A stretch of DNA of 64,000 nt from Alphaproteobacteria bacterium (GCA_964291215.2 OZ219790.1:1216001-1280000), one strand, 5' to 3'. Counted from the first letter of the stretch, positions 9,270-39,332 are shown. The notes: a model not told the origin generated them from the letters alone. Numbers and translations are program-made.

Positions 9270-10091
9270 ATGGGCCTTGTACAAGTGAATGGCTGGTCGT
9301 TCGATTGCGAAGTCTCGGGCGAAGGGCCCGACCTGATCTTCATTCACGTAGAGATTCACGGGACGGAATACTGGGAACACCAGATAGCGAAATTCTCGCG
9401 CGACCATCGATGTCTCGTTTACCACAGGCGTGGCCACGGGCGGACCGGCGCACCGGGCCGCGGGTACGAACTTGAGAACCAGCGGAGGGATCTCGAGGCG
9501 CTCGTCGATCACTTCGGCATTGTTGATCCGATCATCATTGCGGTCGCGTTCGGAACCACGATCGCCGTCGATTTTGCGCTGGCGAACCCGGACAGGGTTC
9601 GCGGCATATTCATGGTCGCATGGAGCGAGCTTCACGAGGCGCGGAAATATCTCGACTGGTGGAAGGCAGCGAACGGAGAAGTGGTCCGGATCCTGAAGAG
9701 TGGCGGCCGCGAGCAACTGATAGACTATCTCAGGCGCGAAGCCGAGCGCACCCTCTATCTGGTCATCCCTCTCGATTCACATGTCCGGGAGCGATGCATT
9801 CAGATGTTCGCGCGTCATCCCGTGGAGGAATACGAACGCGGCATGCTTGAATTCGCGGAATCGGTGCCCGACCTCGTGACCCCGTTAGCCGGGCTCGACG
9901 TACCGGTCCGGGGCATCTGCGGATCGAATGACCCGTTCCCGGACCGGCCGGAGACACTGGCCGGCATGGCGGCATTTCAGGAACTTCCCCCGATCCCCGG
10001 AGCTTCGCGCTTCGTTCAATGGGAGCGTCCCGACGAGTTCAATGCCGCTCTCCGCAGCTTTCTCGCAACCTGTCCGGCCGGACGAGACTAG
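9270..10091 (+). CDS. Alpha/beta hydrolase-fold protein with atypical catalytic positions
   Basis: 'GEGPDLIFIH', 'RRGHGRT', 'ERPDEFNAALRSFL'; elbow reads AVAFG instead of GxSxG. Confidence 0.75.
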   Translation: MGLVQVNGWSFDCEVSGEGPDLIFIHVEIHGTEYWEHQIAKFSRDHRCLVYHRRGHGRTGAPGRGYELENQRRDLEALVDHFGIVDPIIIAVAFGTTIAVDFALANPDRVRGIFMVAWSELHEARKYLDWWKAANGEVVRILKSGGREQLIDYLRREAERTLYLVIPLDSHVRERCIQMFARHPVEEYERGMLEFAESVPDLVTPLAGLDVPVRGICGSNDPFPDRPETLAGMAAFQELPPIPGASRFVQWERPDEFNAALRSFLATCPAGRD

Positions 10092-11265
10092 TGTTATGTC
10101 AGCAATGATATGTCGTACATTTGGTGCTAGACTGTCCGTCCATTCGGGATGGAGGTCGGAGTATGAAACGCTACGTGGTGACCCTGGACGAGGCGGAACG
10201 GAAAGAACTTTCGGAGATCACGACCAAGGGCTCGCACCTGTCGCAAAAGGTAATCAACGCCCTGCTTAACTGCGACGAGGGCGCGTTCAATGAATGCCAG
10301 ATGACCGGGAAGGTCATTGCTGAGATTCTGCGCATCAGCATGCGCAAAGTAGACCGAGTGAAGAAGCGTTTCGTTGAAGAGGGGCTAGAGGCGGCATTGG
10401 GTGGCCGGCAAGGACGCCGTCCTACCTACATGCGAAAAGCCGACGGCACCTTCGAGGCGCGCTTGGTGGCCCTGAGTTGTGGTGAACCGCCCGAGGGTTA
10501 CGCGCAATGGTCGTTGCGGCTGCTGGCCGACCGCGTTGTCGAGCTTGGTTACATTGATACCGTGTCACACGAGACGGTGCGGCGTGTTCTAAAAAAAACT
10601 GCATCAAGCCATGGCAGCGGGTTGGGTGGGTAATTCCTCCTCAAGGGAATGCCGACTTCGCCGCGGCGATGGAGAAGGTGCTCGATGTCTATCGCCGTCC
10701 CGCCGCCTTCCCCGTGGTCTGCATGGACGAAACGCCCCGACCGGCGAGACACGGCAACCGATCGCCATGGCGCCGGGACGGTCAGCGCGTAACGACTACG
10801 AGTATCGACGTTGCGGCACCTGCAACGTCTTCACGGAACCCCTGGCCGGCAAGCGCATGACCAAGGTAACCGAGCGCAAGACCAAGATCGACTGGGCGCA
10901 GTTCCAGGCCGACATCGCCGAGCGCTACCAGGATGCTACCACCATCACCCTGGTGATGGACAATCTCAACACTCCCCGGCGCCTTCTATGAGGCCTACCC
11001 GCCGGACGAGGCCAAGGCCTTGTGGGACCGCTTCGAGTTCGTCTACACCCCCAAGCACGGCAGTTGGCTGAACGTGGTCGAACTCAACGTCATGATCCGC
11101 CAGTGCCTGAACCGCCGCATCGACTGCATCGAGGTGCTACGCCGGGAAGTTGCCGCCTGGCAGGCGACCGCATCCAGGCCAAGGTGGATTGGCAGTTCAC
11201 CACCGACGATGCCCGCGTGAAACTCAAACGTCTTTATCCGACATTTGACGAATGACAATACACTA
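10089..11265 (+). mobile_element. IS630-family element, degenerate copy 1
   Basis: TIRs CTAGTGTTATGTCA / TGACAATACACTAG; HTH ORF 'MKRYVVTL..', A8 slippery site ~10591, 'CMDE', 'VMDNLNT', 'TPKHGSWLN.E' fragments. Confidence 0.92.
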
Positions 11266-11276
11266 GAGAGGGGCCG

Positions 11277-12023
11277 ATGCGCATCGTCGATCTGAGCCTG
11301 CCGATCAACGGAAACATGGCAGGGCTTCCCGGGTTCGAGACCTATCGAAACAACCCGACAAGAACCTATCCGCTGTCGGTCATCAGCGATCGGCAGAAGG
11401 CCACGCTCGCTGAACGCGGACTTAAGACCGAGTCGGAGCCCGAGATTTCTAACCACATGCTGAGCAAGCTGAAAATCGTCACCCATGTGGGAACACATAT
11501 CGACGCACCGCTGCACATGCTCGAGGACACCTGGTCGGTGGACCAGATACCGCTGGAGCGCCTAGTGAAGAACGGCCGGATCATTCCGCTGACCGATGTT
11601 CCCGCGGGCGGCATGGTCACGGCCGCGGCGATGCTGAAAAGCGGCGTCGATTTCGACGAGACCGTCATTCCGATCCTGCACACAGGCTGGACCGAGAAGA
11701 CCTGGGGAACTCCCGAATTCTGGGATGAAACGGTCTACATGCACCGCGATGCCGCAGAACTGCTGGTCGAGCACGAGGTAAGCGCGGTCGCGATCGACTT
11801 CTTCCCCGAGTTCCCGTTCTGGCGTAACGGCATAGAACGGCCCGAAGGGCAGCCGCCGGGGCACAATCACCGGCTGCTCCTCGGCAACCGCATCATCATC
11901 ATTCAGATGGTTACCAACGTAGGCGCGATCGGTGCCGGCGACTTCACCCTGTCGGCCGTGCCGCTGCGGCTGGAGGGCCTGGACGGCTCCCCAGCCCGGG
12001 TCTTTGCGACTGTCGAAGACTGA
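11277..12023 (+). CDS. Cyclase family (kynurenine formamidase-like) metallohydrolase
   Basis: 'HVGTHIDAPLH' (HxGTHxDxPxH), 'DLSLPI', 'GLDGSPARVFA'. Confidence 0.9.
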   Translation: MRIVDLSLPINGNMAGLPGFETYRNNPTRTYPLSVISDRQKATLAERGLKTESEPEISNHMLSKLKIVTHVGTHIDAPLHMLEDTWSVDQIPLERLVKNGRIIPLTDVPAGGMVTAAAMLKSGVDFDETVIPILHTGWTEKTWGTPEFWDETVYMHRDAAELLVEHEVSAVAIDFFPEFPFWRNGIERPEGQPPGHNHRLLLGNRIIIIQMVTNVGAIGAGDFTLSAVPLRLEGLDGSPARVFATVED

Positions 12024-12057
12024 GATACCCGGCGCCGGACGGGCATCTGCCGGAGCG

Positions 12058-13122
12058 CTATTCGGCGGCAGCCGACCTGAATTCCGCAACGCGCATGCGA
12101 TGGAGCGCACGGCGCGCCAGCGCAACTGCCTCGTCATGCCGACGGTAGTGCAGCCCGCGTTCCCGATCACGCAGAATCGTAGCCTGTTGTGCCTCGATCA
12201 TGGCCTTGTCTTCCATGAACGCGTCGGCGATGTCCTTGTAGAACTGCTTCCCGGCGGCCGTTGTGGCCGGGCAGTTGCGGTTCGCTACCGACCAGAAATA
12301 ATGGCAGCTAGTTTCCGATTCCGGTGTCGCGTGATGGAACAGCCGCAATGACACGCCACCGTCCTGATTCCGGTTCTCTTTCGCTCCGCGGCCGACTTCC
12401 AGTGCGCCACCCCATTGCAGCACCGAGCCGGGAGCCACGTATTCGAAATCGGACCAACGATCGACGGGGCTCTGGAATCCGGCAGCGGCGACGAAGGACG
12501 GGGGAGGAGGCGAAGCCATCATCCACCTGATGAATCTGGCGCCGTTTTCCGTTGCAGCCGTCTCAAGCGTCGCATCGACATGCGACTGCGGAAATCCTCC
12601 GATGGTGGAACCATGGACATATCCGAGATGCGTCAGATCCATGAGGTTGTCGATCACGAACATAAAATTCGCGTCATAGTGGTAGTGACCGAACTGGAAC
12701 GGCCATTCCTCGCCCGCCTCGTGGAACGGATAGTTGATGATCGCGGACTCATCGGCGAGGCCGGGATCACCCATCCAGACCCAGACGAAACTCTGCCGCT
12801 CGACGGCAGGGAACGAGCGCACCCGATAGAGCGCCCGATCGTCTTCCTCTCCCGGATTTCCGATGCATGCACCGTCGCGGCCATAAATCATGCCGTGATA
12901 GCAGCACTGGATACCGTCTCCAACGACGCTGCCGAGGCTGAGCGGAGCAGCACGATGGCAGCACCTGTCTTCGAGAATGGCAGCGTCGCCAGAGGCATCA
13001 CGGAACAGAACGACATCTTCGCCGAGGAGTCTGCGCGCGAACGGCGCGTCCGTGACTTCATGCGACCAAGCGGCAATATACCATGCGTTGTGGACAAGAG
13101 GTTCGATCGGACAGTCAGGCAT
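12058..13122 (-). CDS. Rieske oxygenase alpha subunit (VanA-like O-demethylase family)
   Basis: 'DRCCHRAAPLS...CCYHG' Rieske motif, 'DNLMDLTHLGYVH' mononuclear Fe site, 'EDKAMIEAQQ'. Confidence 0.9.
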   Translation of the reverse strand: MPDCPIEPLVHNAWYIAAWSHEVTDAPFARRLLGEDVVLFRDASGDAAILEDRCCHRAAPLSLGSVVGDGIQCCYHGMIYGRDGACIGNPGEEDDRALYRVRSFPAVERQSFVWVWMGDPGLADESAIINYPFHEAGEEWPFQFGHYHYDANFMFVIDNLMDLTHLGYVHGSTIGGFPQSHVDATLETAATENGARFIRWMMASPPPPSFVAAAGFQSPVDRWSDFEYVAPGSVLQWGGALEVGRGAKENRNQDGGVSLRLFHHATPESETSCHYFWSVANRNCPATTAAGKQFYKDIADAFMEDKAMIEAQQATILRDRERGLHYRRHDEAVALARRALHRMRVAEFRSAAAE

Positions 13123-13399
13123 CGTCGCAAATCCCTGTGGTTCATCAGGAACGCATGACATCGGTCCTGCCCAACGCCAATGCAGTATCGCATGGCCGCG
13201 GCGAGAACCGCTGTCGCACGAATGACCCGCTTGAAGCACTCCAACTCCCTGCCTGACTGCCGATAACCGCCCGGATGTCAGCCACCGGCCAGTAGGCAAA
13301 ACCGCATATGCCGGATTTCTCCGCAACCGCGTGTTTCGTCAGGCTGCCAAGTGGCACAGAATAGTGTGGTTGTGACCCGACGGCAAACACGCGGCATGC

Positions 13400-13450
13400 C
13401 GCCTCAAAGCGCAAACCTCAGACAAATTTCCAGACATCAAGTTACAGTAC
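13400..13450. repeat. End of unidentified mobile element
   Basis: CGCCTCAAAGCGCAAACCTCAGACAAATTTCCAGACATCAAGTTACAGTAC matches 30221-30271 inverted and partly 31991-32015. Confidence 0.7.
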
Positions 13451-13961
13451 CGTCGCCCATCTGCCGGTTCGGCTTCGGGCCCTTGCCGTTGCTCCCGGCA
13501 CGCTCTCGTCCTTGTCCGTCTGTGACGGCGGCAGATCGGAGTTCCGGCTCGTTTTGCGCGTGGTCTTCTCCAGAAGGACGACGATGATGATGTCGAGCAG
13601 GATGACGAGGACGCGGATCACGGCCTCTTCCGCCACCTTGCCGGCCGCACGCAGCGCCGTGATCCGGGTCTTGGCCGCTTCGAACTCCTCGCGCGCCGCC
13701 CGTCGCCATCACCCGGCCTTGCGCTTCATCAGCGCGCCGCCTCCGAGATGCGTTTCCACATACAGATCATGCGGGGGCTGGAGCCCCGGAAGCAGCTGGC
13801 ACAGCCCGCTCGTCGCCTTCGATCCAAAGTAGCCCACTGGCGGTCCCTGTCGTTCTCGATTACCACCACTAAACGAATCGGCCTGCAGTGTCAAATCTCC
13901 ACAAAAACCCGTTCGTTGCTCTACCCCGACATCAAGCCGGAACCAGGGGGTGAGCAGTTAC
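13451..13961 (-). mobile_element. Truncated IS66-family (MTase-carrying) element, left part
   Basis: IR GTAACTGCTCACCCC at 13961; 'GYFGSKATSG..ETHLGGGA' fused to 'EKTTRKTSRNSDLPPSQ' transposase N-terminus. Confidence 0.85.
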
Positions 13962-14446
13962 AGAGAATCATCATAATTGGCGGCGCAGCCCTGATCTTCG
14001 GCCAGTTTCTGAATTTCGCCGGTCTGTCCGGTGCGCTGGTCGAGTTCACCGAGAGTTTCAATCTCGGCCCGTTGACCTTGCCGCTGGTGATCTGTGCAAT
14101 CTGCGTCGTTTTGGAAATGATATTCGAAAGCATCGGAATTCTGCTGCTTATCGTCCCGGTGTTCCTGCCCTCGCTGGAGGCGGTGGCCGGCGACGCCGCG
14201 ATCGACCCCGATTTTTATCTGGTCTGGTTCGGAATCGTCGTGATCATCGTTGTCGTACTCGGGCTGATCACGCCTCCAATCGGAATCAATGTCTTCACCG
14301 TCAAGTCGGTCATTCCCGATGTCGAACTGACCAAGATCTTCGCTGGCGTCGTGTCCTTCGTGTTCGCCGACCTCATCGTGCTTGCCCTGATCTTTCTCAT
14401 ACCCGGACTGGCGATCTTCCTGCCGTCGGTCATGCCATCCTTCTGA
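13962..14446 (+). pseudogene. DctM C-terminal fragment truncated by IS66 element
   Basis: 'WFGIVV..GLITPPIGINVF', 'PGLAIFLP' DctM C-terminus; no N-terminal half. Confidence 0.8.
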
Positions 14447-16578: not shown

Positions 16579-16644
16579 GGTATGGTGAACATAGGTGCTG
16601 GGGAGACGCTGGCAAACAGGAGATCAGATCGGAGGTATCGGGTG

Positions 16645-23272: not shown

Positions 23273-24472
23273 CCCACTTCCAGTCTGAAGTGCAACATCC
23301 GCCCCTCATCGCAGTGAGGGCGTAGCCCGAACGGAGATGAGGGCCGGATGTTGTGCAAATTTTTCCCCTCTGCCCCTCTCGATTCCGCCCGGGAACAGCT
23401 TCAGTTCCTTCAACATCGAGCTTATGCAACGCCTTTGTCGGCTTCAAGCCACTATTTCGCCGTCGCGCGGCATAGACCCTGCTGCACGTTGCGGCTTCGG
23501 AACGCAGATGGTCAGGGCGGTTTCACTTCAAGATTACCTCCGTCGGCGATCCCGGGACTTTCCGAGTGTTGAGCCGATCCTGCACCTTCTGAACATCTTC
23601 GTTGCATGTCGCGCGAAAGGCCTTGCCCTTCGGGAAGTACTCCCGCACCAGGCCGTTGGTGTGCTCATTCAAGCCGCGCTCCCGGGAATGGAAAGGCGAT
23701 GAAGAAATCTGCGTCAAGTGCGACACGCCTGTGGTCTGCGAACTCCGTTGTCTGACGTGATTGTGTGGACCAATAGCGCACCAGAGCCGAGCAGGCGGAT
23801 CATGACCGAACCGACCGTGTCTTTCTGTCCACCCGTCCCGGCAAGGTGTATTTCGTGGCACGAGCGACACGACAGCTCCACTGTGAGCTTTGCCGATGAT
23901 GGCTCCCGGTCGCCGACCCGTTCCTTTGCCTCCGCAGGGCGCTCGGAAATGTCCACCCGGCCGGAATGGCATCCGCCCTTCCGGTTCGGCTTCTTGCCGC
24001 GCCGCCGAAGCTTCTTCCACAAGACGCCCCCAGCTCTCCGATCTTCGGCGATCATGGATCCGTTGCCGACCCACGGCCTTCCAGTCGAAAACGGCCGCTG
24101 CTCGGGGCCCTCCCGCAGCTTTTTCTGAGCTTCAACCCGAGGCGTCAACCGCCAAGAAACAGACGAGGCGACCCTGCGGCGCATTTCTGCCATCCTTTGC
24201 GCCTGCTTGTGACGGTAACCCCGTCCCCCGGTGTTGCGCTTGATCTCCCGGAAAATTGTTGATCGGCCCAGCTGCCGAGCAATCGCACCTTGTGAAAGAC
24301 CGCTTTTCTGCCTCAATCTGACATCGCTCTTCGTAGGTGACGGTAGCCTTTGGACATGAACAAGCTCCCTTCATCTTGTACAGGAACTCTCGCCGCTACC
24401 GCTCCGCAACATCATGCGTCTAAAAACACATAGCCACAGCCCATCATGTGTTGCGCTTCACTATGGAACGGG
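23273..24472 (-). mobile_element. IS30-family element, degenerate copy 1
   Basis: 'IARQLGRSTIFREIKRN', 'TITSDNG', 'ERGLNEHTNGLVREYFPKG'; IRs ..TTCCA.(A/T).TGAAG(T/C)GCAACA. Confidence 0.9.
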
Positions 24473-27400: not shown

Positions 27401-28610
27401 TAATCAAGCGGGGGTTCGCTGCAGTTTGCCGTTTGAGACCATCCAGAAGCAGGCGTTTTTCTTCTGGCGAGAAGTGTTGGGCGTCTCCGTAAAGGACAAT
27501 TCCAAGAGGATCGCGCGGAATTACCTCCGCTCGGCTGGATCTGCTGTGTGCTGCGAGCCATGCGGAAAGACCGCGCAGTTCGGAGACCACCACGCCATCG
27601 TATCCGGTGATTAGAGCGAGAATGCGCCCGATCGGCAGCCCGTTCTCGACAAGAGCGGCCAAGTACCTGGCGGCGAGAAACTCCGCGACCTGCCGGTGAA
27701 CGGGAACTATGCGGCGCTCTGTGGGAGATTCGAACAGTTTGGATTCCAGGCTTCGGCGGAGAATCTCCCGTTCGGTTCCCTGAAGCCGATCAAGTTCGAG
27801 GAAATGCTGATCGCTCTTCGCACCCGGCAGTGCGTACCCCGCGGCACCAGTCAGAAGCTGCACTGCGCAAAGCCTCCCGCTGGCCTCGATGAGATCGGCG
27901 ATGGCGCCCGGATCCAGACTGGATATGCGATGTTCTTCATTGTGCTCTGCAAGCAGAGTTCGGCATGCCATGTCGAATGCCTGCGTTCTGGTCTCGGGCC
28001 AGCCACTGGCGGCTCCGACCGCAACCGCGAGCATTTTGAGGCTCTGTGGATTGACCAGTAGTTCGTGGAGGCCCTTCTCTTGGGCCGCCGCGACAAAATC
28101 CTCCGGATCATCGATCCTCAGAACACCGCGTAGAAATTGGTGGATATCTTGTTCGGACAGCGGATCGAGGCGGAGCACCTTGACGGCTCCGCTGGGTGAT
28201 ACCTGTTTGAGATGATCCTTGTCATTGGCTCCGAACCAATCAGCCTCACGACACGACAGGCGAAAACGGGGACGGCCCATTCGGTCAAGTTTGGCACGGA
28301 TACGGTCGAATGGAGTACGCCCGTCGGTGGTTCCGGTCCGTGTCTCGTCGAGCCCATCGATGAAGAGAGTCGTATCGTGCCACTCGGCCCGGTCGTCGAA
28401 GGTGAGGAAATCGCGCGCAGTGACACAATGCCCGCCTTGGCGTTCCACCAGATGCTTGAAAATGGTGGTCTTGCCGGAGCCTGGAGGACCAAGAAGCACA
28501 TAGGCCGCCTCGTCCTTCCAATCCTCAACAGGTCGGGACGAAATATGCGTAGGGTCACGGGAGTCGCGCTCGCCGATGTCGTGGCATGTCCGTCGAACAG
28601 TGCACGTCAT
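24444..28610 (-). CDS. Large NACHT-like STAND NTPase with putative C-terminal PD-(D/E)xK nuclease domain
   Basis: Walker A GPPGSGKT, Walker B LFIDGLDE, 'SCR', 'HRQVAEFLAA', long helical region, C-terminal 'RADIQV...VPVEIK'. Confidence 0.8.
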   Translation of the reverse strand: MTCTVRRTCHDIGERDSRDPTHISSRPVEDWKDEAAYVLLGPPGSGKTTIFKHLVERQGGHCVTARDFLTFDDRAEWHDTTLFIDGLDETRTGTTDGRTPFDRIRAKLDRMGRPRFRLSCREADWFGANDKDHLKQVSPSGAVKVLRLDPLSEQDIHQFLRGVLRIDDPEDFVAAAQEKGLHELLVNPQSLKMLAVAVGAASGWPETRTQAFDMACRTLLAEHNEEHRISSLDPGAIADLIEASGRLCAVQLLTGAAGYALPGAKSDQHFLELDRLQGTEREILRRSLESKLFESPTERRIVPVHRQVAEFLAARYLAALVENGLPIGRILALITGYDGVVVSELRGLSAWLAAHSRSSRAEVIPRDPLGIVLYGDAQHFSPEEKRLLLDGLKRQTAANPRLITTVQLDSRLGDLVSSDMENQILKILTAPARKDSWQSFVVILLEALWHGEPIPRLVDPLKELIRDGTRWPRIRDRAVYLFVRHHRDHTQALTELKELTADVYAGRVPDSDDALLGRLLSKIYPEAISETEVIRYLRVPQRPNHSPEYDYFWNGQLPKRSTRRQLATLLDQIVERYDDLLADERAHGLPTFFIGCLPSNLLARFLLLSGDEVDLTRLFHWLEPAAKAGDWTYDPDIGREESREIRRWLESRPDAWKTLLKMSLERCGERPDCTEPYWFYRCMREEERGRLLGAARPRDFGMWCLDQAVAAKNRIITEWLIGEVAESLHYGRFDEGLSREAVSRRLVGFARLSDAFEKIMVELEAPTFDGDRFKPRSQARSRTERPDWHDHVKPYEDELRGNMANPKLLYELAKVYFGGYLNVRGNSPRDRLNALLAGDENLVDAVLSGFRNTIDRDDLPSDTRVIRLGIANRTHYLALPFMAGLEEMAKIAPSGEIGIDRQRLRLALAVHYTVPMWPTARHSADRPPRWFAWTLSDRPEIAAEVLVRSVLSKLRKGAESPTGIHELAYSPDHARVARLATMSLLGQFPARCASGQLSSLNHLLLAARRHCDIEPLRELIDEKHADHRMSVAQRVHWLVAGLCVAPESYVEPLESYVAGKERRIRFLAEAVTGQFSTSPDLKYRQSAPALRLLIQLVGTSYRPYSHDADSDEGIMVTSEMTAADRVQDCIEQLASITTGDASFALEALSSDNDLRPWHSLLMDAAYRQKAARREAEFAYSNTARVLETLASGAPANVADLAALTLEHLNEIARTIRAGNTSDWKQYWNVDHYSRPQNPRPEDACRDALLSDLRNRLMRLDIEVQPEGCYANDKRADIQVSCAGFNVPVEIKRSCHRDLWSAIRSQLMACYVVDPGTDGHGIYLVFWFGDTEDCRPTPPAIGSPVVAPLELEDRLSSILSAEERRKIRIRVIDVSDPNASPRSIVKRNT

Positions 28611-29883
28611 GGGTTGTCGAACCATTCCCATGCCTGTGTTGAAAGAAACTCGGAAACAGGAAGTCCTCCCTCGCCGATGACAATGGTTGCCTGGGCGTCG
28701 AAGCGCTCCGCAAATCGTTCGAGCCCGCTTGTCCTTGGCTTACGCGCGCCGCTCTTCACCTCGAAGGCAACCAGTCTGCGACCGCGTGTCAGAACGAAAT
28801 CCACTTCGGAGCCGTTCTCTCGCCAATAGTACAGACCGTGTGCTGGTGTGCCCGTATTGAACAGGTGCGCCCCCACCGCGCTTTCGACAAGGCGTCCCCA
28901 ATAGCTGCGGTCGGCCTTTGCTTCCTCGAACGTGTATCCCGATGCAACGGCCATGAGTGCGGTGTTGAGAACATTGAGCTTGGGGTTGGAGGATCTCCGC
29001 CGATGGGCCCCGGCGGCGTATTTGGTGAGACCAGCAATCAGACCTGCATTGGACAAAAGGTCCATGTAGCGCGCCAGGGTGGTCGTGTTGCCGGCGTCCT
29101 GAAGCTGGCCACGCATCTTGTTGTACGAAAGGATCTGCCCGGAATACTCGGCGCCGAGCTGGAACAGCCGCTTCAGCAAAGCCGGCTTGTCGACCCGCTG
29201 CAAGGCGAGAATGTCTCGCTCAATGTTGGGTTCGACCAGCGCCTCGGCTATGTAAGCGCGCCATCGGCTCTGCTCGGGAACGAACGGGGCGCCTCCCGGA
29301 TAACCCCGAAGTATACGTAGCGTTGGAGATCGAAGCCAAATGCTGCCGACATTTCGGCGAACGACCAATGCATCAGGCGTACGGTCTCGTACCTGCCGGC
29401 AAAGCTCTCGCTCATTCCCTGCTGCATGAGCAATGGGGCGGAGCCAAGTAGAATGACGTGTAGGGGCCGATCAAGCCGCCGATCGGCATCCCATAGCCCC
29501 TTGACCGTCTCCGACCAGTTCGGGATTTTCTGAATCTCATCGATCGCCAGAACGAGGCCCCGATCGGCACTTTCGGCCGCCAACCGAGCCTGTTCCCACT
29601 GCATGATCAGCCATCGCGCGTCTCTTGAGCCGTCCAGCGGGGCCGATTGCGGTTCCGCGAACTGGAGCTGAGAACTGCCCAAGTCTGGACTTGGGGGGAG
29701 AATCGCAGGATCCGGTTCATCGACAGACACATACCGAGAAGGAGCGTCCAGCTGTCTGAGGACTTGGTCAACCAGTGTGGTCTTGCCCGTTTGGCGCGGA
29801 CCGGTCACGATTGTGAGACGCTGAGGCTTTTCGCTCAGGCGATTGAATAGCGTGGAAATCTGGGCTCGTTCATAGGCTGGCAT
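28607..29883 (-). pseudogene. AAA_14 ATPase-DUF4143 protein, single frameshift near 29305
   Basis: 'GPRQTGKTT', 'IDEIQ', 'ESFAGR' in one frame; 'GYPG', 'GRLVESAVG', 'YYWR...EVDFV...AFEVK' in the next; frame change at TTCGGGGTTAT. Confidence 0.85.
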
Positions 29884-30280: not shown

Positions 30281-30766
30281 ATGGTGGTGTGCAGGGCAAT
30301 CTCGCCCGATCTCGACTCCGTCCGGAGTTTTACCGTCACATCCGACGCGCTCACCGGCGACAGGAAGGACCGCGAAGATGGGACAACCCTCGGGAAGGAC
30401 GGCACGCTCGGGTGGCGGGACGGGAGACGGCCGGACGCGCTCGTCCTGCCCGCCGACCTCGACCGCTCGCTGCGCCATCTCGACGACGCGGACCTCGACC
30501 GGCTGGTCGAAGCGGCAACAGCCGAGGCCCGCAGGCGCGGGCGGCAGGCCGGCAAGACGTCTGGAGGAAGGGCGCATGCCAAGCCCGCGTCGGTGACGCA
30601 GGGGCAGGAAAAGCCGATTCTTGCCGCCTTCGAGGCTGGCCTCAAACCCGTGGCGATCGCGCGGGAGTTCCGCCTCTCGCGCATTCGGGTCGACAGCGTG
30701 CTGGCCGGCGTCGGACAAGGCCGCCGATCGAGCACCTTCGCTGCGGCGAAGTCGGCGTTCCCTTGA
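30281..30766 (+). CDS. Small HTH-like hypothetical protein; 3' end runs into IS630
   Basis: 'VLPADLDRSLRHLDDADLDRL', 'AAFEAGLKPVAIAREFRLSR' HTH-like; start uncertain. Confidence 0.5.
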   Translation: MVVCRAISPDLDSVRSFTVTSDALTGDRKDREDGTTLGKDGTLGWRDGRRPDALVLPADLDRSLRHLDDADLDRLVEAATAEARRRGRQAGKTSGGRAHAKPASVTQGQEKPILAAFEAGLKPVAIAREFRLSRIRVDSVLAGVGQGRRSSTFAAAKSAFP

Positions 30767-31284
30767 GGAGGAATCACCCACCCGCTGCCATGGCTTGAGG
30801 CAGTTTTTTTTAGAACACGCCGCACCGTCTCGTGTGACACGGTGTAACCAAGCTCGACAACGCGGTCGGCCAGCAGCCGCAACGACCATTGCGCGTAACC
30901 CTCAGGCGGTTCACCACAACTCAGGGCCACCAAGCGCGCCTCGAAGACGCCGTCGGCTTTTCGCATATAGGTAGGACGGCGCCGGCCACCCAATGCCGCC
31001 TCCAGCCCCTCGAAACGCTTCTTTACTCGGTCTACTTTGCGCATGCTGATGCGCAGAATCTCGGCAATGACCTTCCCGGTCATCTGGCATTCATTGAACG
31101 CGCCCTCGTCGCAGTTAAGCAGGGCGTTGATTACCTTTTGCGACAGGTGCGAGCCCTTGATCTCCGAAAGTTCTGCCCGTTCGTCCAGGGTCACCACGTA
31201 GCGTTTCATACTCCGACCTCCATCCCGAATGGACGGACAGTCTAGCACCAAATGTACGACATATCATTGCTGACATAACACTAG
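30728..31284 (-). mobile_element. IS630-family element, truncated copy 2 (5' half)
   Basis: Inverted match to 10089-10690 including left IR at CTAG 31281-31284. Confidence 0.9.
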
Positions 31285-31932: not shown

Positions 31933-32073
31933 TGGGAAACCGAAACCAAGGCATACATCAAATGAACAGCTCGATGACTGAGAGATTCACGACAATTTCC
32001 AGACATCAGGTTGCGTAATCGTCCACAACCTAAGGCCCCACTTCACTATGGAACGGGAGAGGAGAAAAGTTCG

Positions 32074-33810
32074 ATGGGAATTATGAAATATGTGACTTTG
32101 GCGGCGCTGGCCGCTGCGGGTCTGGCGCTCGCGGGCTGCGGTGGCGGGTCGAAGAAGCCGGTCGCGATGGGCAACCAGCAGATGGAGATGACGGACGCCC
32201 AGAAGGCGCAGGCGGCCTACGACGCCGCCGCGGCAGCCGAGACGGCGGCGATGACGGCCAGGAAGACAGCGGAAGCTCAGCTGGCCGCGGTCAAGAAGGC
32301 GGTCGAGCCGCCCCAATTCGCTCAGCAAATCTACTATACAGGCGGCGACAGTTCGGTGGTCCGGACCAACGCCGCGCTCGTGAAAGACGCGAAGGCGGCG
32401 GCCGACAAGGCGCTGGCGGACGCCAAGACGGCGCTGACGGCGGCCGAGAAGGCGCAGACGGACCTGAACGCCCTGCCGGCCGGCACGACCGGCCTTGCGG
32501 CGCAGAAGAAGGTGGTCATGGGTCAGATCGAAACAGTGAAAGCGGAGATCAAGGCCATCGAGAAGACCCTGACCGGGGCCGGCACGATCGGAGACTATTT
32601 CTCGAGGATGGATACCGAGGCGGAAATCAAGGACCGCGCCGGCGAAACCCTCGCTACCGCTGGCTTCGACAACGCTACATCGTCAAGGCCCGCGAGGCGG
32701 CTGCTTAATACCTTGTCGCCTGCGGACTCAGCTCGCCCCGGCTCGACCCGCACCGGCGGTTACGATGGCAGAGGCGGCGTGAATCAATACAATCGGAGGC
32801 CGACAAATAGCTACGGCGACTCCGATGGCGCTCGTCCGCCGACGAAGGTCATCGCCACCGGGGAGGTCGCCGATCGGAGATCCATGTTCTATCACAAGTA
32901 TGACGACGGCGAACTCCCGGCCGGCGTCATGACCTGGGAGCAGATCGCCGCCAAGGATGGGATGCTCGTGAAGAAGGCCTTCGGCACCGACAACATGGAT
33001 GTCGATGTCCTGCCCCTTGCCGGGATGCCCCTGTCCGCACTCACCAACTCGAGCGGAACGGGCCTGACGACGTATCCCACCGACATCTCCGAAGACCAGT
33101 ATTACAAGGGGGTCAAGGGGACGCTGTATTGCCAGGGCACCTGCTCTGCCCCTGGCGGCAAGCTGACCGGCAAGCTGTTCTTCAAGGCGGCCGACGAATT
33201 CGACGATGGCTACGCGGGCAACTATCGCTACTACTGGATAACGCCGAGGAACTCCCATTACACGACGTGGAATGCCTATGTCCGCTACGGGTACTGGCTG
33301 TATGGAACCGGCACCACCACCGGGGTCTCGGTCCTCGCAGACAGCCCTGCCGGCTATCGCGGGTTTACTGGTGTAAGCGTCACTGGTCTCCCCGCCACCG
33401 CCACCTACAAGGGCGAAGCCCTTGGCCTGTCGGCGCTGAAGCTCTACACCGCCGGCGAACACACGGGGCAGAAGTCCGCACGGTTCACGGCGGATGTGAC
33501 GCTCAACGCCAAGTTCGGGGCTGATCCCAAAATAGAAGGAAAGATCGACAACTTCAAGGGGAATGCCGTCGACGAGAAGTGGAGCGTCAAGCTCGCGCAG
33601 ACAAAGCATGCCGACTTCGATGCCGAGGGCTTGGCCACGGGTTCCAGCGGCAGCACCGCCTTCGACAAGCCCGGCAGTTGGCAGGGTAACCCCTTCAGCC
33701 AGGACGGCGTGGGGCGCCCGGCCGGCTACATGGGCGTCTTCAACACCCATTTCCCGAACGGGTCGGCTGCCGGCGCCTTCTCGACGAGGATACAGGCGCC
33801 GGCAGAGTAG
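32074..33810 (+). CDS. TbpB-like surface lipoprotein (probable Slam/T11SS cargo)
   Basis: Lipobox LAGC, Ala-rich coiled coil, C-terminal barrel motifs 'ATYKGEALG','FTADVTLNAKFG','GKIDNF','AAGAF'; adjacent Slam gene. Confidence 0.78.
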   Translation: MGIMKYVTLAALAAAGLALAGCGGGSKKPVAMGNQQMEMTDAQKAQAAYDAAAAAETAAMTARKTAEAQLAAVKKAVEPPQFAQQIYYTGGDSSVVRTNAALVKDAKAAADKALADAKTALTAAEKAQTDLNALPAGTTGLAAQKKVVMGQIETVKAEIKAIEKTLTGAGTIGDYFSRMDTEAEIKDRAGETLATAGFDNATSSRPARRLLNTLSPADSARPGSTRTGGYDGRGGVNQYNRRPTNSYGDSDGARPPTKVIATGEVADRRSMFYHKYDDGELPAGVMTWEQIAAKDGMLVKKAFGTDNMDVDVLPLAGMPLSALTNSSGTGLTTYPTDISEDQYYKGVKGTLYCQGTCSAPGGKLTGKLFFKAADEFDDGYAGNYRYYWITPRNSHYTTWNAYVRYGYWLYGTGTTTGVSVLADSPAGYRGFTGVSVTGLPATATYKGEALGLSALKLYTAGEHTGQKSARFTADVTLNAKFGADPKIEGKIDNFKGNAVDEKWSVKLAQTKHADFDAEGLATGSSGSTAFDKPGSWQGNPFSQDGVGRPAGYMGVFNTHFPNGSAAGAFSTRIQAPAE

Positions 33811-33837
33811 CCCGCTCCCGGAACATCCGCGTTCCCG

Positions 33838-33872
33838 GGCCCCGGCCGCTTCGCGCGGCCGGGGCCTTCTTT
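33838..33872 (+). terminator. GC-rich hairpin after lipoprotein gene
   Basis: GGCCCCGGCCGC-TTCGC-GCGGCCGGGGCC followed by TTCTTT. Confidence 0.6.
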
Positions 33873-33926
33873 CCTCCGGCGCCCTCCGGGCGGCCGGAGG
33901 TTCCCTTTGCACGGACAGGGGTTTTC

Positions 33927-34316
33927 ATGCGCATACCCGCTCTCGTCATTGCCGCCGGGCTGTGCCTGTTCGCCGCCGCCGCCCACGGCCAGGACGCGAC
34001 CGGCCCGCGGTTCCGGGCGGGCATGGAGGCGCTTGCCGCCGCGCAGGCCGCCGCGGACCGGGATGCCCGCGACGGGAAGCTCGACGAGGCGATTGCGGCG
34101 TTCCGGGCCATCTTGGTGGACCGCTCGGAACTGGTGCGGGTGCGTCTCGAACTCGCACACGCCTTCTTCCTGAAGGAGGAGGACAGCCTGGCGCGGCGGC
34201 ATTTCGAACAGGTGCTGGCGGGGACGCCGGCGGTGGCCGCCAACATCCGGCGCTTTCTCGACATCATGCGCGCGCGGCGGCGCTGGGAGGCGCATTTCGG
34301 CCTGGCGGCAGGGTAG
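33927..34316 (+). pseudogene. Slam (surface lipoprotein assembly modulator) N-terminal TPR fragment
   Basis: Signal peptide, 'LDEAIAAFRAILVDR.ELVRVRLELA.AFF', 'LARRHFEQVLAG', 'ANIRRFL...RARRRW'; beta-barrel missing. Confidence 0.78.
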
Positions 34317-34401
34317 TCTTACGCTAAATTCTGTCTGGTTTTTCAAGACAGTACCTGGGCTTTGCGGGGTTGCGGGTTGGTGCGGGAGATTTTTTTACAC
34401 C

Positions 34402-35591
34402 CCCGTTCCATAGTGAAGTGCAACACATGATGGGCTGTGGCCATGTGTTTTTAGACGCATGATGTTGCGGAGCTGTCCAGCAGCGGCGAGAGTTCCTGTA
34501 CAAGATGGAGGGAGCTTGTTCATGTCCAAAGGCTACCGTCACCTACGAAGAGCGATGCCAGATTGAGGCAGAAAAGCGGTCTTTCACAAGGTGCGATTGC
34601 TCGGCAGCTGGGCCGATCAACAATTTTCCGGGAGATCAAGCGCAACACCGGGGGACGGGGTTACCGTCACAAGCAGGCGCAAAGGATGGCAGAAACGCGC
34701 CGCAGGGCCGCCTCGTCTGTTTCCTGGCGGTTGACGCCTCAACGATGAGCTGAAGCTCAGAAAAAGCTGCGGGAGGGCCCCGAGCAGCGGCCGTTTTCGA
34801 CTGGAAGGCCGTGAACGGATCCATGATCGCCGAAGATCGGAGAGCCGGGGGCGTCTTGAAGCTTCGGCGGCGCGGCAAGAAGCCGAACTGGAAGGGCGGA
34901 TGCCATTCTGGCCGGGTGGACATTTCCGAGCGCCCTGCGGAGGCAAAGGAACGGATCGGCGACCGGGAGCCATAATCGGCAAAGCTCACAGTGGAGCTGT
35001 CGTGTCGCTCGTGCCACGAAATACACCTTGCTGGGTGGACAGAAAGACACGGTCGGTATGATCCGCCTGCTCGGCTCTGGTGCGCTATTGGTCCACACAA
35101 TCACAACGGCAAAGAGTTCGCAGACCACAGGCGTGTCGCTGAAGTACTTGACGCAGATTTCTTCTTCGCCTTTCCATTCCTGGGAGCGCGGCTTGAATGA
35201 GCACACCAACGGCCTGGTGCGGGAGTACTTCCCGAAGGGCACGGACTTTCGCGCGACATGCAACGAAGATGTTCAGAAGGTGCGGCTCAACACTCGGAAA
35301 GTCCCGGGATCGCCGACGGAGGTAATCTTGAAGTGAAACCGACCTGACCATCTGCGCCATGTTCCGCAGCCGCAACGTGCAGCAGGGTCCATGCCGCGCG
35401 ACGGCGAAATAGTGGCTTGAAGCCGACAAAGGCGTTGCATAAGCTCGATGTTGAAGGAACTGAAGCTGTTCCCAGGCGGAATCGAGAGGGGCAGAGGGGA
35501 AAAATTTGCGCAATACCCGGCCCTCATCTCCGTTCGGGCTACGCCCTCACTGCGATGAGGGCCGGGTGTTGCACTTCAGACTGGAAGTGGG
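34402..35591 (+). mobile_element. IS30-family element, degenerate copy 2
   Basis: Inverted homolog of 23273-24472 with different indels. Confidence 0.9.
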
Positions 35592-36011
35592 GCATTCATT
35601 GAACGCGCCCTCGTCGCAGTTAAGCAGGGCGTTGATTACCTTTTGCGACAGGTGCGAGCCCTTGATCTCCGAAAGTTCTGCCCGTTCGTCCAGGGTCACC
35701 ACGTAGCGTTTCATACTCCGACCTCCATCCCGAATGGACGGACAGTCTAGTCATCTGGAACTGAAGTAAGCATGATTGTATGATGGCGGTTGGAGTGTGA
35801 ACACGGAGGTCATGGCGATGCCACGCGGTATGGGACGGCCCTTGGCGGTGCTGGTCTTGAGTGGTCAAGGCCGCCAGCGGCCGTCCCGTACCGCGCCCCA
35901 TCGAGATAACCTCCATTGTCCGACTCGGGACACAACTTTACAATGAACCTTACTTCAGTGTCACGTGACTAGCACTAAATGTACGAAATATCATTGCTGA
36001 CATAACACTAG
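35592..36011 (-). mobile_element. IS630 left-end fragment interrupted by a MITE
   Basis: Matches 31088-31284; left IR ends at CTAG 36008-36011. Confidence 0.85.
35748..35971. mobile_element. Palindromic IS630-type MITE made of two diverged left ends
   Basis: CTAG at both ends; TIR core ACTGAAGTAAG; each arm has GGAGG RBS and ORF start (MPRGMGRPLA / MGRGTGRPLA). Confidence 0.75.
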
Positions 36012-37449
36012 TTGGGTTCTGATTGGTCGTAGTGCTCGTTGATGATGTCTGCGGCTTTTCCGTCGAGGGCGATCTGGGTGGCGACGAGTGGGTTGTAGCC
36101 GAGTGCGGCCATGGAGGTGAGGTAGCTTGAGCCCCGGCACCATGCTTTTGCGTGGAGCGGAAGCATCCGGACACCTTGACCTTTGCCATCCTGATTTTCT
36201 GTTCTCCGGCATTGTTGGTGAAGCTGACGTTGGGGTCGTCTGTGAAGCGCAGGTTTTCGTGTTTCACGAGACGTTCGTGCAGGTTGTGCGCGTCGGACTT
36301 GCGTCCACGTTTTCCTTTCGGCGGGATGTCGGGCAGTTCCCTGGCGCCCTGATGGTGCGGTAGCGCTTGCGCCCGGCGTCGTTCAGGGTCTTGGATGCGC
36401 TCTTGTTGACCTTGTGGCAGACCTCGCGGAGCAGGCTCTTCATCAGTCGCGCGGTAGCCTCGACGACAAAGGTCAGTTCGCGCAGCAGGTGGCTACCGCA
36501 CAGCTGGTGGCTACACTGGCCCATGTACGAGGCCCAGGACGCCCTTGTAGCACGGGCCGATCTCTTGCCCGCGCTTGCGGTGCGGGAACTTGCACGTCAG
36601 GGTCCCACGACATGAAGCCACTTACTGTTGATCCGAAATCGTCGACATCGGGCGTTGCAGGAGGTGCGCCACGGCGGCCTCCTCCCATGACGCATCGTGA
36701 AAGCATAGCCGAGGCAGGTTGCCTCGGAGAGCTTGATGCCGGAGATCGCCTGCACGAGCGCGACGGCGCAGGGACAGCATCTGGGCGACCAGCAGGTTGA
36801 TGACGAGGGCCTGGATGCCGATGCCGTACTGCACGGGATGTTGTCGGGGAACCGGGCCTTGCACTTCGGGCATTCCTCGGCGTCGACGCGGCGCGACCTC
36901 GAACACGATGTCGTGCGGCGCTCGACGGGGTCGGCGCCGCAGGCGTCGCAGGCCGCGACCGTCTCCTCGACGATGGCAGGTTGTCGCCCATCTGCCGGTT
37001 CGGCTTCGGGCCCTTGCTCCCGGCACGCTCTTGTCCGTCTGTGACGGCGGCAGACCGGAGTTCCGGCTCGTGCGTGGTCTTCTCCAGAAGGACGACGATG
37101 AGGATGTCGAGGATCACGGCCTCTTCCGACACCTTGCCGGCAGCGCCGCGGTCCTGGCCGCTTCGAACTCCTCGCGCGCCGCGTTGACCGTCGCCATCAC
37201 CCGGCCTTGCGCTTCATCAGCGCGCCGCTTCCGAGATGCGTTTCCACATACAGATCATGCGGGGGCTGGAGCCCCGGAAGCAGCTGGCACAGCCCGCTCG
37301 TCGCCTTCGATCCAAAGTAGCCCACTGGCGGTCCCCGTCGTTCTCGATGACCACCACTAAACGAATCGGCCTGCAGTGTCAAATCTCCACGAAAACCCGT
37401 TCGTTGCTCTACCCCGACATCAAGCCGGAACCAGGGGGTGAGCAGTTAC
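36008..37449 (-). mobile_element. IS66-family (MTase stub) derivative, copy lacking right IR
   Basis: Colinear with 21475-22960; left IR ends at 37449. Confidence 0.9.
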
Positions 37450-38175
37450 GAGCTTGGTTACATTGATACCGTGTCACACGAGACGGTGCGGCGTGTTCTA
37501 AAAAAAACTGCCTCAAGCCATGGCAGCGGGTGGGTGATTCCTCCTCAAGGGAACGCCGACTTCGCCGCGGCGATGGAGAAGGTGCTCGATGTCTATCGCC
37601 GTCCCTATGATGCCGCCTTCCCCGTGGTCTGCATGGACGAAACGCCCCGACCGGCGAGACACGGCAACCGATCGCCATGGCGCCGGGACGGCCAGCGCGT
37701 AACGACTACGAGTATCGACGTTGCGGTACCTGCAACGTCTTCATGGCCACGGAACCTCTGGCCGGCAAGCGCATGACCAAGGTAACCGAGCGCAAGATCG
37801 ACTGGGCGCAGTTCCTGGCCGACATCGCCGAGCGCTACCAGGATGCTACCACCATCACCCTGGTGATGGACAATCTCAACACTCATCGGCCCGGCGCCCT
37901 CTACGAGGCCTACCCGCCGGACGAGGCCAAGGCCCTGTAGGACCGCTTCGAGTTCGTCTACACCCCCAAGCACGGCAGTTGGCTGAACGTGGTCGAACTC
38001 AACGTCATGATCCGCCTGAACCGCCGCATCGACTGCATCGAGGTGTTACGCCGGGAAGTTGCCGCCTGGCAGGCGACCGCATTCAGGCCAAGGTGGATTG
38101 GCAGTTCACCACCGACGATGCCCGCGTGAAACTCAAACGCCTTTATTCGACATTTGACGAATGACAAGACACTAG
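37450..38175 (+). mobile_element. IS630-family element, 3' part (copy 3)
   Basis: Matches 10541-11266; right IR TGACAAGACACTAG. Confidence 0.9.
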
Positions 38176-38596
38176 GACGCCATCCGATGCCCGGACCCCA
38201 ACCACTGGAACGAATACGTCTTCCGCGCGTATACGGGCCATCGGGATGAGACGATCTTCCTGACCGACATCCCGGATATCCGATAAAGCTTTCCCCATGC
38301 CTCGTCCCTTCGGTAGCCCGACCATCGGGCATCTCCGGGGACCCGGGACGCTGGCTGTTGCCCGGCGCATCGCTTCGACGCCGGTCGGCGCCACAGGCGA
38401 TCGACCGCATTCGATCGTGAAGGGTCGGGGCCCGGCGCCTGACGGCAGCCGGCCCAGCCGGCAACCGGAGACGCGGTGAATGCGGCATCGACGCGGATTC
38501 GGGCGCGGAGCTTTGAAATCAACTGGTACCTATTCGATACCCGGAAGCCGAAAGTTCCCTGCGCCGGTTTCGGTCAATGCATATAGAAGATTGTTT

Positions 38597-39332
38597 GTAA
38601 CTGCTCACCCCCTGGTTCCGGCTTGATGTCGGGGTAGAGCAACGAACGGGTTTTCGTGGAGATTTGACACTGCAGGCCGATTCGTTTAGTGGTGGTTATC
38701 GAGAACGACGAGGACCGCCAGTGGTCTACTTTGGATCGAAGGCAACGAGCGGGCTGCGCCAGCTGCTTCCGGGGCTCCAGCCTCCGTATGATCTGTATGT
38801 GGAAACGTATCCGGGAGGCGGCGCGCTGATGAAGCGCAAGGCGCCGGCGCTCGATTGGGATCGACCGGGAGCGCTGGACGGGTTCGGGTGCGACTGTCCG
38901 GTGAAACTGATCCACAGCTGCGCCCACGCGTTCCTGGCCGGCTTTGCGTTCCGAGGCACGGAACTGGTCTACAGTGACCCCTGCTGGCGACGCGCCGATC
39001 GAAGCGGCGGTACCGCCACGACTACACCGAAGCCGACCATGTCGAACTCCTTGAACTGCTCAAGGGGCTGCCGTGTCAGGTGATGGTCTCGGGCCACCCC
39101 TCGGCGTTGTACGACGACCTGCTACGGGACTTCAGGATGGCAAAGGTCAAGGTGTCCGAATGCTTCCGCTCCACGCAAAAGCATGGTGCCGGGGCTCAAG
39201 CTACCTCACCTCCATGGCCGCACTCGGCTACAATCATCACGTTGCAACCCAGATCGCCCTCGACGGAAAAGCCGCAGACATCATCAACGAGCACTACGAC
39301 CAATCAGAACTCAACTAGGGGTGAGTAGATAC
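38597..39332 (+). mobile_element. Mini-IS66 derivative carrying most of the methyltransferase gene, transposase largely deleted
   Basis: Both IRs present; perfect 8-bp TSD GATTGTTT (38589-38596, 39333-39340). Confidence 0.9.
38721..39130 (+). pseudogene. Dam-like (D12 class) N6-adenine DNA methyltransferase, frameshifted and truncated
   Basis: GAGGA RBS + GTG; 'YFGSK', 'ETYPGGGA', 'LVYSDP' (DPPY broken), then 'YRHDYTEADHVELLELLKGLPCQVMVSGHPSALYD'. Confidence 0.75.

Follow-up and report, generated by a model that had tools for sequence, protein, structure and literature searches.

The subject of our analyses was a 64-kb window (OZ219790.1:1216001-1280000, the whole stretch of DNA examined) from an uncultured alphaproteobacterium whose genome, G000, comprises 6.15 Mb in two contigs, has a GC content of 64%, and consists for ~27% of 25-mers occurring at least three times. 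Its SecA is 52–69% identical to records that are mainly alphaproteobacterial, which places the organism no more finely than that class. The window is populated by degenerate copies of insertion sequences (IS), and comparison of these with one another and with their relatives elsewhere in G000 revealed that the multicopy elements of this genome have lost a great many segments of 5–7 bp, with the same segments missing from many copies. A preliminary description of the window had noted short deletions in its IS copies and offered two explanations, a genome-wide deletion mutator with loss of mismatch repair, or a repeat-directed inactivation process resembling repeat-induced point mutation (RIP) of fungi. 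Both proved partly right and neither sufficient, as the main feature, absent from that first reading, appears to be the one-way spread of existing deletions between copies. The relevant features of the window are as follows.

5966–7141, minus strand: single-copy acyl-CoA ligase pseudogene, compared with its intact orthologue in the sister genome G001.
10092–11263, plus strand: IS630-family copy (family F10, ~50 copies), identified by Pfam HTH_32/DDE_3, with both alleles in public-run contigs; lightly affected, with 6 deletions (5 of 5–7 bp) and 19 substitutions.
13452–13958, minus strand: IS66-family fragment (F2, ~190 copies or fragments; family Pfam DDE_Tnp_IS66); 2 deletions, 5 substitutions, long allele at 13477.
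20314–21143, no strand assigned: copy of repeat F23 (28 copies; no Pfam name); 8 deletions of 5–7 bp, 25 substitutions.
21466–22957, minus strand: IS66-family copy (F2); 25 deletions (23 of 5–7 bp), 28 substitutions.
23275–24470, minus strand: IS30-like copy (F8, 77 copies); 15 deletions (13 of 5–7 bp), 25 substitutions.
30727–31280, minus strand: IS630 fragment (F10); 8 deletions, all of 5–6 bp, 4 substitutions.
31991–34390, plus strand: eight-copy 2.4-kb repeat, internally repetitive, ending in a Slam TPR remnant (33690–34313).
34404–35589, plus strand: IS30-like copy (F8); 16 deletions (14 of 5–7 bp), 12 substitutions.
36008–37446, minus strand: IS66-family copy (F2); 29 deletions (24 of 5–7 bp), 16 substitutions.
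37449–38172, plus strand: IS630 fragment (F10); 4 deletions, 11 substitutions.
38586–39334, no strand assigned: two short end fragments of an IS66-family element (38586–38886 and 39132–39334).
62901–64000, no strand assigned to the whole: ISAzo13 remnant in two frames (62901–63402, minus strand), then the start of a heavily deleted copy of repeat F24 (from 63876, running beyond the window end), with 18 deletions in 576 aligned bp.

All five sites quoted in the preliminary description are present in the sequence, and its statement that core genes are intact agrees with the alignment of 29 of 31 window-region genes to G001 without net frameshift. Of the element names it used, IS630, IS66 and ISAzo13 were recovered by Pfam and IS30 by a weak HTH_38 match (below the cut-off, on a sister copy of F8), whereas IS1634 was unconfirmed and ISAs1 corresponded only to a weak DDE_Tnp_1_assoc match on a family outside the window. 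An ISAs1-like frame of family F11 elsewhere in the genome (L201, G000:C2:2439666-2441259) has a weak match to DruA of Druantia before its DDE_Tnp_1_assoc domain. The Slam pseudogene had also been thought to share the deletion pattern. However, the eight-copy repeat in which it sits, with a frame of ~600 aa, has indels of 1–36 bp without a 5–7-bp peak and stands outside the pattern.

Seventy seed repeat families were built in G000, 16 of which (the eight largest and eight more, together 947 copies) were analysed in depth. Among these, Pfam supported IS66, IS256, IS630 (two families), ISAzo13 and a group II intron reverse transcriptase, with weak matches only for IS30 and ISAs1. A majority consensus was initially taken as the ancestor of each family and then replaced, as it made 5–7-bp insertions look as common as deletions because the majority of copies already lack many segments; the longest-allele reference that we used instead was checked against outgroups. 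Relative to this reference the 947 copies have 13.2 deletions of 5–7 bp and 20.7 substitutions per kb, and have lost 9.7% of their bases. In the eight largest families there were 11–25 deletions, 15–29 substitutions and 0.1–0.9 insertions per kb, and every full-length copy had at least one deletion of this kind (median 13–43 per copy). The size peak does not hinge on the aligner, since exact 12-mer anchors recovered 674, 1330 and 681 differences of −5, −6 and −7, compared with 7 of −4, 92 of −8 and 77 of −1. The deletions had been described as roughly as frequent as substitutions; the ratio between pairs of copies is ~0.4 indels per substitution, with 44 indels (41 of them 5–7 bp) to 113 substitutions in six pairs from the window. 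Group II introns are affected equally to IS elements, which removes the suggestion that the process is aimed at IS. The intron family sits in the IS66-family element F2 at one fixed site, position ~236 (for example at G000:C1:24454-25970), and the two may have spread as a composite.

Outgroups established the polarity of these changes. Intact outgroup elements hold 106 of 106 polymorphic bases of IS630 (G004) and 222 of 223 of the IS66-family element (G001), and the length changes are therefore deletions. The same comparisons revealed further 5–7-bp segments that have been lost from all or nearly all G000 copies, and many of the rare 5–7-bp "insertions" in the IS630 and IS66-family sets coincide with extra bases in the outgroups and are therefore surviving ancestral alleles of nearly fixed deletions. 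The IS630 copy at 10092–11263 likewise retains one 6-bp segment, near 10877, that is gone from all other copies. A young IS66 family in the same assembly (L204, G000:C1:476941-479300; 15 hits), with 1.5 substitutions per kb, mostly full 463-aa frames and intact 234-aa frames, had no polymorphic deletions. Relative to its G004 homologue it is shorter by several 6–9-bp segments, through losses here or gains there. Short alleles of the window copy of IS630 were found at 10190, 10619 and 10877 in contigs of all three public sequencing runs and at 10409 and 11099 in two of the three; the runs belong to one study with no library type on record, and two may be the source of the assembly. One run, with 59 substitutions relative to the assembly over 6071 bp (~1%), thus represents another strain.

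The preliminary description considered the deletions to be bounded by microhomology. This is not the rule, as 253 of 413 distinct 5–7-bp events have 0–1 nt at the junction, although microhomology of at least 2 nt is enriched in G000 (160/413, 39%, versus ~17–21% by chance) and was found for 21 of 112 events in G002, another member of the genus. Microhomology is thus a secondary feature at about twice chance, and these proportions fall short of the majority of events that microhomology-mediated or alternative end-joining would entail.

The sites in each family are limited in number, at about one per 45 bp, and at each one the segment is absent from many copies in mosaic fashion. For isolated events (no other shared deletion within 6 bp, copies more than 4.5% diverged excluded), only 16 of 267 deletions of 5–7 bp in the 16 families were private (6%; 3/72, 10/128 and 3/67 for 5, 6 and 7 bp, respectively) and 210 (79%) were present in at least 20% of copies (79, 76 and 84% for 5, 6 and 7 bp). 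The 1–4-bp deletions behave like single-nucleotide polymorphisms (SNPs) in frequency and the 5–7-bp deletions do not: 89 of 131 isolated 1–4-bp events were private (68%; 68/98 of 1 bp and 21/33 of 2–4 bp) and 15 (11%) reached 20% of copies, while 2076 of 3656 SNPs (57%) were private. The lower edge of the class is abrupt, with 7 events of 4 bp, one of them common, versus 72 of 5 bp, 57 of them common. At the upper edge, deletions of 8–9 bp are intermediate (13/23 common), and of 16 isolated deletions of at least 10 bp, 10 were private and 3 common. SNPs polarised by outgroups were mostly rare when derived (101/157 and 201/260 below 5%).

All four gametes were observed in 3287 of 3665 pairs of deletions; therefore, no tree accounts for the sharing. 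At 13477, where two alleles had been interpreted as independent losses, genome-wide counts of 81 and 36 among 181 copies mark them as shared alleles rather than private events. SNPs are mosaic also, and linkage between them decays from an r2 of 0.53 at distances below 10 bp to 0.16 at more than 640 bp. Multi-allele sites number 31, against 59 by chance, and sites are spaced more evenly than random. They are also depleted toward the ends of elements (5 in the outermost 50 bp versus ~26 per 50 bp inside) and close to truncation points (−0.088 ± 0.032 within 30 bp). Some pairs of IS copies in G000 have identical or near-identical haplotypes (C2:163864/C2:1241056, C2:161339/C2:1238531 and C1:2593282/C1:1250404), pointing to segments duplicated recently or misassembled locally near the end of C1.

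The deletion load depends on copy number. At matched divergence (2–6%, up to 150 pairs sampled per class), 5–7-bp indels per substitution rose through successive copy-number classes from 0.020 for two copies to 0.064, 0.089, 0.168, 0.230 and 0.312 for more than 90 copies, a 15-fold climb in density, although the pairs are not independent and the low-copy classes may include functional genes. Indels of 1–4 bp were flat at 0.04–0.07 per substitution from three copies upward. This dose response is the part of the RIP-like proposal that stands; its other part, fresh mutagenesis of each copy, does not, because the alleles are shared at identical breakpoints.

Diverged subfamilies provided a means of following deletions relative to their flanks. 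A sister subfamily of the group II intron (~10% diverged, 9 copies) has 21 of 24 sites overlapping those of the major family, where chance predicts 6.6, and 34 exact breakpoints in common with it, and its carriers had the diagnostic SNP of the major family in 6/27 cases at 1–3 bp, 4/35 at 4–6 bp and 4/38 at 7–10 bp from the deletion, compared with 32/318 (~10%) at 41–60 bp. Corresponding counts at 1–3, 4–6 and 7–10 bp were 0/17, 1/5 and 0/34 in an IS66 sister (~15% diverged) and 2/2, 0/8 and 0/10 in a third family; a fourth family, with a single minor copy, offered no diagnostic SNPs. Subfamilies that are 8–15% diverged thus share exact breakpoints mostly without the SNPs 1–10 bp away. The loss rate at major-family sites falls with divergence, from ~0.57 to 0.29 (6–13%), 0.12 and 0.04 (>18%, two copies), and diversity among deletion carriers drops only within 10 bp of the deletion (ratio 0.57, versus 0.96 in SNP controls). 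Toy simulations of unbiased conversion yielded 0.3–0.4 deletions per kb, at most 6% of them common, and those of one-way transfer yielded 5–9 per kb, with 45–65% common; of the two, only near one-way transfer gave a load like that observed. A bias toward the shorter allele can also be read, indirectly and in one genome, from the frequency spectra and from the finding of no common derived insertions relative to outgroups.

The ends of the lost segments have a weak, two-fold symmetric and loose sequence preference. In 169 events without microhomology, [not C][C/T] opens the segment in 63% and [A/G][not G] closes it in 70%, versus a background of 37% for each. Both occur together in 74 (44%; background 14%), the product of the two. 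In G002 the preference is weaker (16 of 58 with both ends, 13 with neither). Several sources of such a signature were considered and set aside: extrusion of mini-hairpins, as the segment ends are not complementary beyond base frequencies; a restriction-type motif, as a destroyed-k-mer test gave nothing strong and a breakpoint-anchored test gave only the loose end preference; and mismatch-centred cutting, as SNP diversity inside deleted segments had no consistent excess.

To define the background outside repeats, 1.08 Mb of G001 (~5 Mb, ~92% identical to G000) was compared with G000, 704 kb of which aligned. A lineage-specific, genome-wide excess of 5–9-bp deletions exists, with 96 clean losses in G000 versus 4 in G001 in single-copy DNA (72 vs 4 without events having at least 4 nt of microhomology) and in-frame losses of 6 bp within genes numbering 29 versus 2; in non-coding DNA, 1-bp events were 95 versus 69. 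Polarisation by outgroups had little power, since of 158 events of 3–12 bp queried only 16 had an outgroup match, and the 11 of these that were 5–9 bp comprised 3 G000 deletions, 8 ambiguous events and no G001 insertions. The acyl-CoA ligase pseudogene of the window, which relative to its G001 orthologue has lost 7 bp (near 6167), a further 8 bp and a single base, is an example of this background process. Single-copy DNA is therefore not spared, but is affected over ten times less than repeats: non-coding single-copy DNA has 0.6–1.2 events per kb, two-copy repeats 0.8 and already frameshifted genes 0.27, versus 13 per kb in the repeats, and a plain mutator is therefore not the whole story. Private isolated 5–7-bp deletions in repeats number 16 per 2076 private SNPs (~0.008) and single-copy deletions 38 per ~3945 lineage substitutions (~0.010), so that new private deletions arise in repeats at about the single-copy rate. 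The single-copy events resemble slippage, 52% lying in imperfect tandem repeats versus 7.6% expected.

The pattern is not confined to G000. In G002 (SecA 76% identical) it was present in four intron copies, and a 400-kb sample, half of which was picked around mobile-element matches, had 386 indels of 5–7 bp versus 338 of 1–4 bp in 121 pairs. Four IS630 copies of G004 had 116 substitutions and no indels in three comparisons. A control genome from another family, the IS-rich G030 (58 kb, 48 pairs, 127 substitutions), had 21 pairwise 5-bp indels, mostly from one tandem-repeat site, and its copies are too young to test generality. A metagenome pattern scan for relatives of the IS66-family site gave no matches.

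We consider it probable, though some way from assured, that 5–7-bp deletions arise rarely anywhere in the genome and then pass one-way, from short to long copies, by the clipping of loops in paired copies, a scheme of which we infer every part (pairing, cutting, sealing and enzyme). Slipped or mispaired loops of at least 5 nt would supply deletions at ~0.01 per substitution, since loops of that size are poorly seen by MutS (PMC2504288). RecA, which needs ~25 bp of homology, would pair two copies, and the extra 5–7 nt of the long allele would loop out. A nuclease would cut both loop junctions and the strand would be sealed on the short copy as a splint with little or no DNA synthesis, so that neighbouring SNPs would stay. 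Once the joint was undone the loop, then on the other strand, would be clipped likewise or the change fixed by replication; if both strands had to be cut at usable positions, the two-ended preference would follow. As a lost segment could not be restored in this way, each deletion would be its own guide and would become more frequent the more donors there were. Nested elements and other larger heterologies would not fit the clipping step, and ordinary longer conversions would run alongside and shuffle SNPs.

The lead candidate for the cutting step would be dual incision of the UvrABC type or "large loop repair" directed by the loop. The handling by MutS of loops to ~4 nt fits the lower edge of the size window. 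The upper edge, the lack of co-transfer and the preference at both ends suggest that the loop is cut twice at its base and that little DNA is synthesised. UvrABC excises 12–13 nt. A bolder version, to which we give only tentative credence, is that a dedicated homology-guided editing system excises the 5–7-nt loops with the shorter copy as splint, each deletion being a self-spreading guide. If true, these bacteria would possess their own equivalent of RIP, in which every high-copy mobile element loses about a tenth of its length, together with a natural enzyme for template-guided micro-deletions that works without DNA synthesis.

An inventory of repair genes, which the preliminary description had recommended, found recA, ruvC, mutS, mutL, uvrC, recJ, xseA and dinB in G000, and loss of any of these was accordingly rejected as the cause. 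RecA and UvrC are intact. MutS (981 aa) and MutL (670 aa) have open frames with full domains and 1-bp events are not dominant in G000 relative to G001, which excludes a mismatch-repair-null mutator. Neither ku nor an ATP-dependent (LigD-type) ligase was found in any of the five genus genomes (G000 is 99% complete), and Ku/LigD end-joining was rejected on this basis. The single IMS-family gene of G000 (G000:C2:207279-207716) has two counterparts in each of G002, G003 and G004; the second, weak match may be ImuB, and none was found in G001 (93% complete).

Several results weigh against spread by clipping. The single-copy events run from 5 to 9 bp, are slippage-like and have no clear end preference (5 of 32 with both ends, 6 with neither), and the repeat and single-copy classes may have different origins. 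Within families, carriers are fixed at 47% of polymorphic sites 1–3 bp away and at 9% of those 41–60 bp away, a linkage that fits longer conversion tracts as well. The private share is 6% in the real data versus 13–17% in the one-way simulation; the data are more extreme than that simulation, and the supply may therefore have fallen or sites may be saturating. In the eight largest families the density of sites fails to follow copy number, and the per-copy deletion load does not track the private-SNP count (rho −0.43 to 0.18), for which reason this proxy of age was rejected as a predictor of load; the limits of the copy-number series given above belong here also. The direction of transfer was not directly observed, and the run data are contigs rather than reads tied to loci. 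Lastly, no enzyme was found: the candidate nuclease and repair families are either absent from or common to all five genus members, the candidate genes occur equally in G001, G003 and G004, and none of the genes tested separates G000 and G002 from the other genomes of the genus. The H. pylori microimports discussed below, moreover, did not need the nuclease sites of UvrC (PMC9426483).

Foremost among the rivals is recurrent staggered cutting at fixed sites. Here a nuclease aimed at multicopy DNA would make staggered cuts 5–7 nt apart at preferred sequences, followed by trimming of the overhangs and Ku-free joining, which would create an identical deletion repeatedly in one copy after another, or, in a variant, the cut copy would be mended from one already without the site; we regard either version as unlikely. 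The independent preference of both ends, read on either strand, for [not C][C/T] on the 5' side resembles the signature of a two-fold symmetric enzyme and is not explained by hairpins, but it is met by 14% of random segments, which is too loose for one site per ~45 bp with penetrance of up to 95%. The scarcity of rare alleles and the even spacing of sites suit fixed targets, yet repeated cutting sits poorly with multi-allele sites being rarer than chance. Similarly, a requirement for a matching target would produce the narrow drop in carrier diversity, and independent cutting would leave flanking SNPs behind across subfamilies, but among long alleles SNPs inside the deleted segments are not enriched. 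No guide system was found. The two CRISPR arrays (G000:C1:574173-581216, 96 spacers of 34–40 bp; G000:C2:2068487-2069571, 16 spacers of 30 bp) have 112 spacers with no real match to the repeats (best 12–18 nt) and the Piwi domain of Argonaute was absent from all five genomes, so that self-targeting by either was rejected; a PIWI-RE search had no positive control. NucS, EndoV and TopIB were not found in G000, in addition to Ku and the ATP-dependent ligase. The arrays adjoin two cas1 genes, and the second follows a 1046-aa frame that by its size and position looks like a type II-C cas9.

Ordinary RecA-dependent conversion, with tracts of tens to hundreds of bases, a general short-allele bias and a 5–7-bp peak that mirrors escape from MutS, is in our judgement improbable. 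It has precedents in eukaryotic paralogs (PMC3280953) and pneumococcal transformation (PMC5850275), and the mosaic SNPs, their decaying linkage and some hitchhiking within families are consistent with it, but diagnostic SNPs at 1–10 bp are mostly not carried across subfamilies. It also gives no reason for the end preference or for the steep fall beyond 7 bp, deletions of at least 10 bp being mostly rare, and comEC was not found in G000.

More improbable still is that a strong genome-wide 5–9-bp deletion mutator, perhaps in a past burst, acted on founder elements that then spread without bias while selection cleaned the genes, a rival that is already largely refuted. The asymmetry between G000 and G001 in single-copy DNA, including in-frame losses in genes, is what a mutator would leave, and the indel-free IS630 copies of G004 indicate that the trait is limited to a lineage; to this extent the mutator of the preliminary description was upheld. 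It is, however, too weak, given the low event rates in single-copy DNA, two-copy repeats and frameshifted genes, and mutS and mutL are intact. Founder lineages should in addition carry ~100 SNPs per deletion at the same frequency, which was not seen, separately diverged subfamilies are polymorphic for the same breakpoints, and the unbiased simulation fails. An assembly or polishing artefact is very unlikely and the least probable of the alternatives, as although the pattern is concentrated in repeats and the three runs share a study and perhaps the assembly, short alleles occur in contigs of all three, including the diverged strain, the young family has no deletions, the separately assembled G002 has the same peak, and errors would be private and mostly 1 bp.

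Other genes of the window were noted in passing. An intact 1395-aa NACHT protein (24444–28631, minus strand), which lies among dead IS copies, scores 955 bits to the antiphage protein EruA (cut-off 1000), and the AAA_14/DUF4143 gene upstream of it is split into two frames (28607–29883). An oxygenase at 12058–13326 (minus strand) has a partial match to 4beta-methylsterol monooxygenase, and contigs of the diverged strain (run X3) leave 11668–13001 almost uncovered.

A full-text literature search, with older heteroduplex-loop papers and supplements outside its reach, found no bacterial description of this pattern. RIP writes new C-to-T changes independently in each copy. The process in G000 shares with RIP the destruction of mobile elements in dependence on homology and copy number, but produces a limited set of deletions common to many copies at identical breakpoints. 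Cordaux is said to have described in 2009, to judge by the title, gene conversion among non-functional IS copies of Wolbachia, a host-associated alphaproteobacterium, with homogenisation. A paper that cites this work, PMC3205602, makes no mention of size-locked deletions in the part drawn on here.

Among bacteria, pseudogenes of Burkholderia leaf symbionts have a bias toward deletions of 3n bp attributed to alternative end-joining (Danneels et al. 2018, PMC6054270). As in our elements, small deletions in neutral DNA are biased in size there and 6 bp is in excess. In those single-copy pseudogenes the sizes obey a power law with peaks at 3, 6, 9 and 12 (PMC6054270), whereas here 5 and 7 bp each occur about half as often as 6, 3 is rare, and copies share events. 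A RecA-linked asymmetry favouring deletions occurs in pneumococcal transformation (Apagyi et al., PMC5850275), and H. pylori acquires very short patches (microimports, mean 28 bp) in dependence on the UvrC protein (PMC9426483). Both need DNA uptake and involve kilobase islands or SNP imports, unlike G000, which lacks a detectable comEC.

Large loop repair is known from E. coli extracts and yeast as a loop-directed, MutS-independent activity on loops above ~4 nt, the limit to which bacterial mismatch repair is efficient, with the bacterial proteins acting on larger loops still unidentified as of that report (PMC2504288). Action above the MutS limit and removal of the loop are shared with the process proposed here. 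However, its substrates in vitro reach hundreds of nucleotides, the part of the report drawn on describes neither a limit near 8 nt nor genome-scale erosion of repeats (PMC2504288), and in G000 deletions of at least 10 bp are few.

The nearest relative is potentially the deletion-biased nonallelic gene conversion of Drosophila and primates, in which the same resolution toward the short allele causes neutral paralogs to shrink together, with a bias of ~3.4-fold that is larger for long indels (Assis and Kondrashov 2012, PMC3280953). Non-tree-like sharing of length variants between paralogs, the hallmark of nonallelic conversion, was found here; co-conversion of flanking markers, the hallmark of tracts, was rare across subfamilies and partial within families only. 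The process in G000 differs in being bacterial, near one-way and confined to ~5–9 nt, and in having an end preference and mostly leaving flanking SNPs behind. Clipping of this kind would progressively wreck multicopy mobile DNA, providing a copy-number-dependent route by which a bacterium could disable transposons and group II introns while a young family remains untouched, and it bears on the origin of the deletional bias of bacteria and on the processing of heteroduplex loops too large for MutS. The genome itself supplies precise predictions (a loop size of 5–7 nt, the end preference and no flanking transfer), and if one enzyme is responsible, it would represent a new kind of DNA editing activity. 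Overall, the process resembles deletion-biased nonallelic conversion in its working, in a bacterial version locked to a narrow size range and mostly limited to the loop itself.

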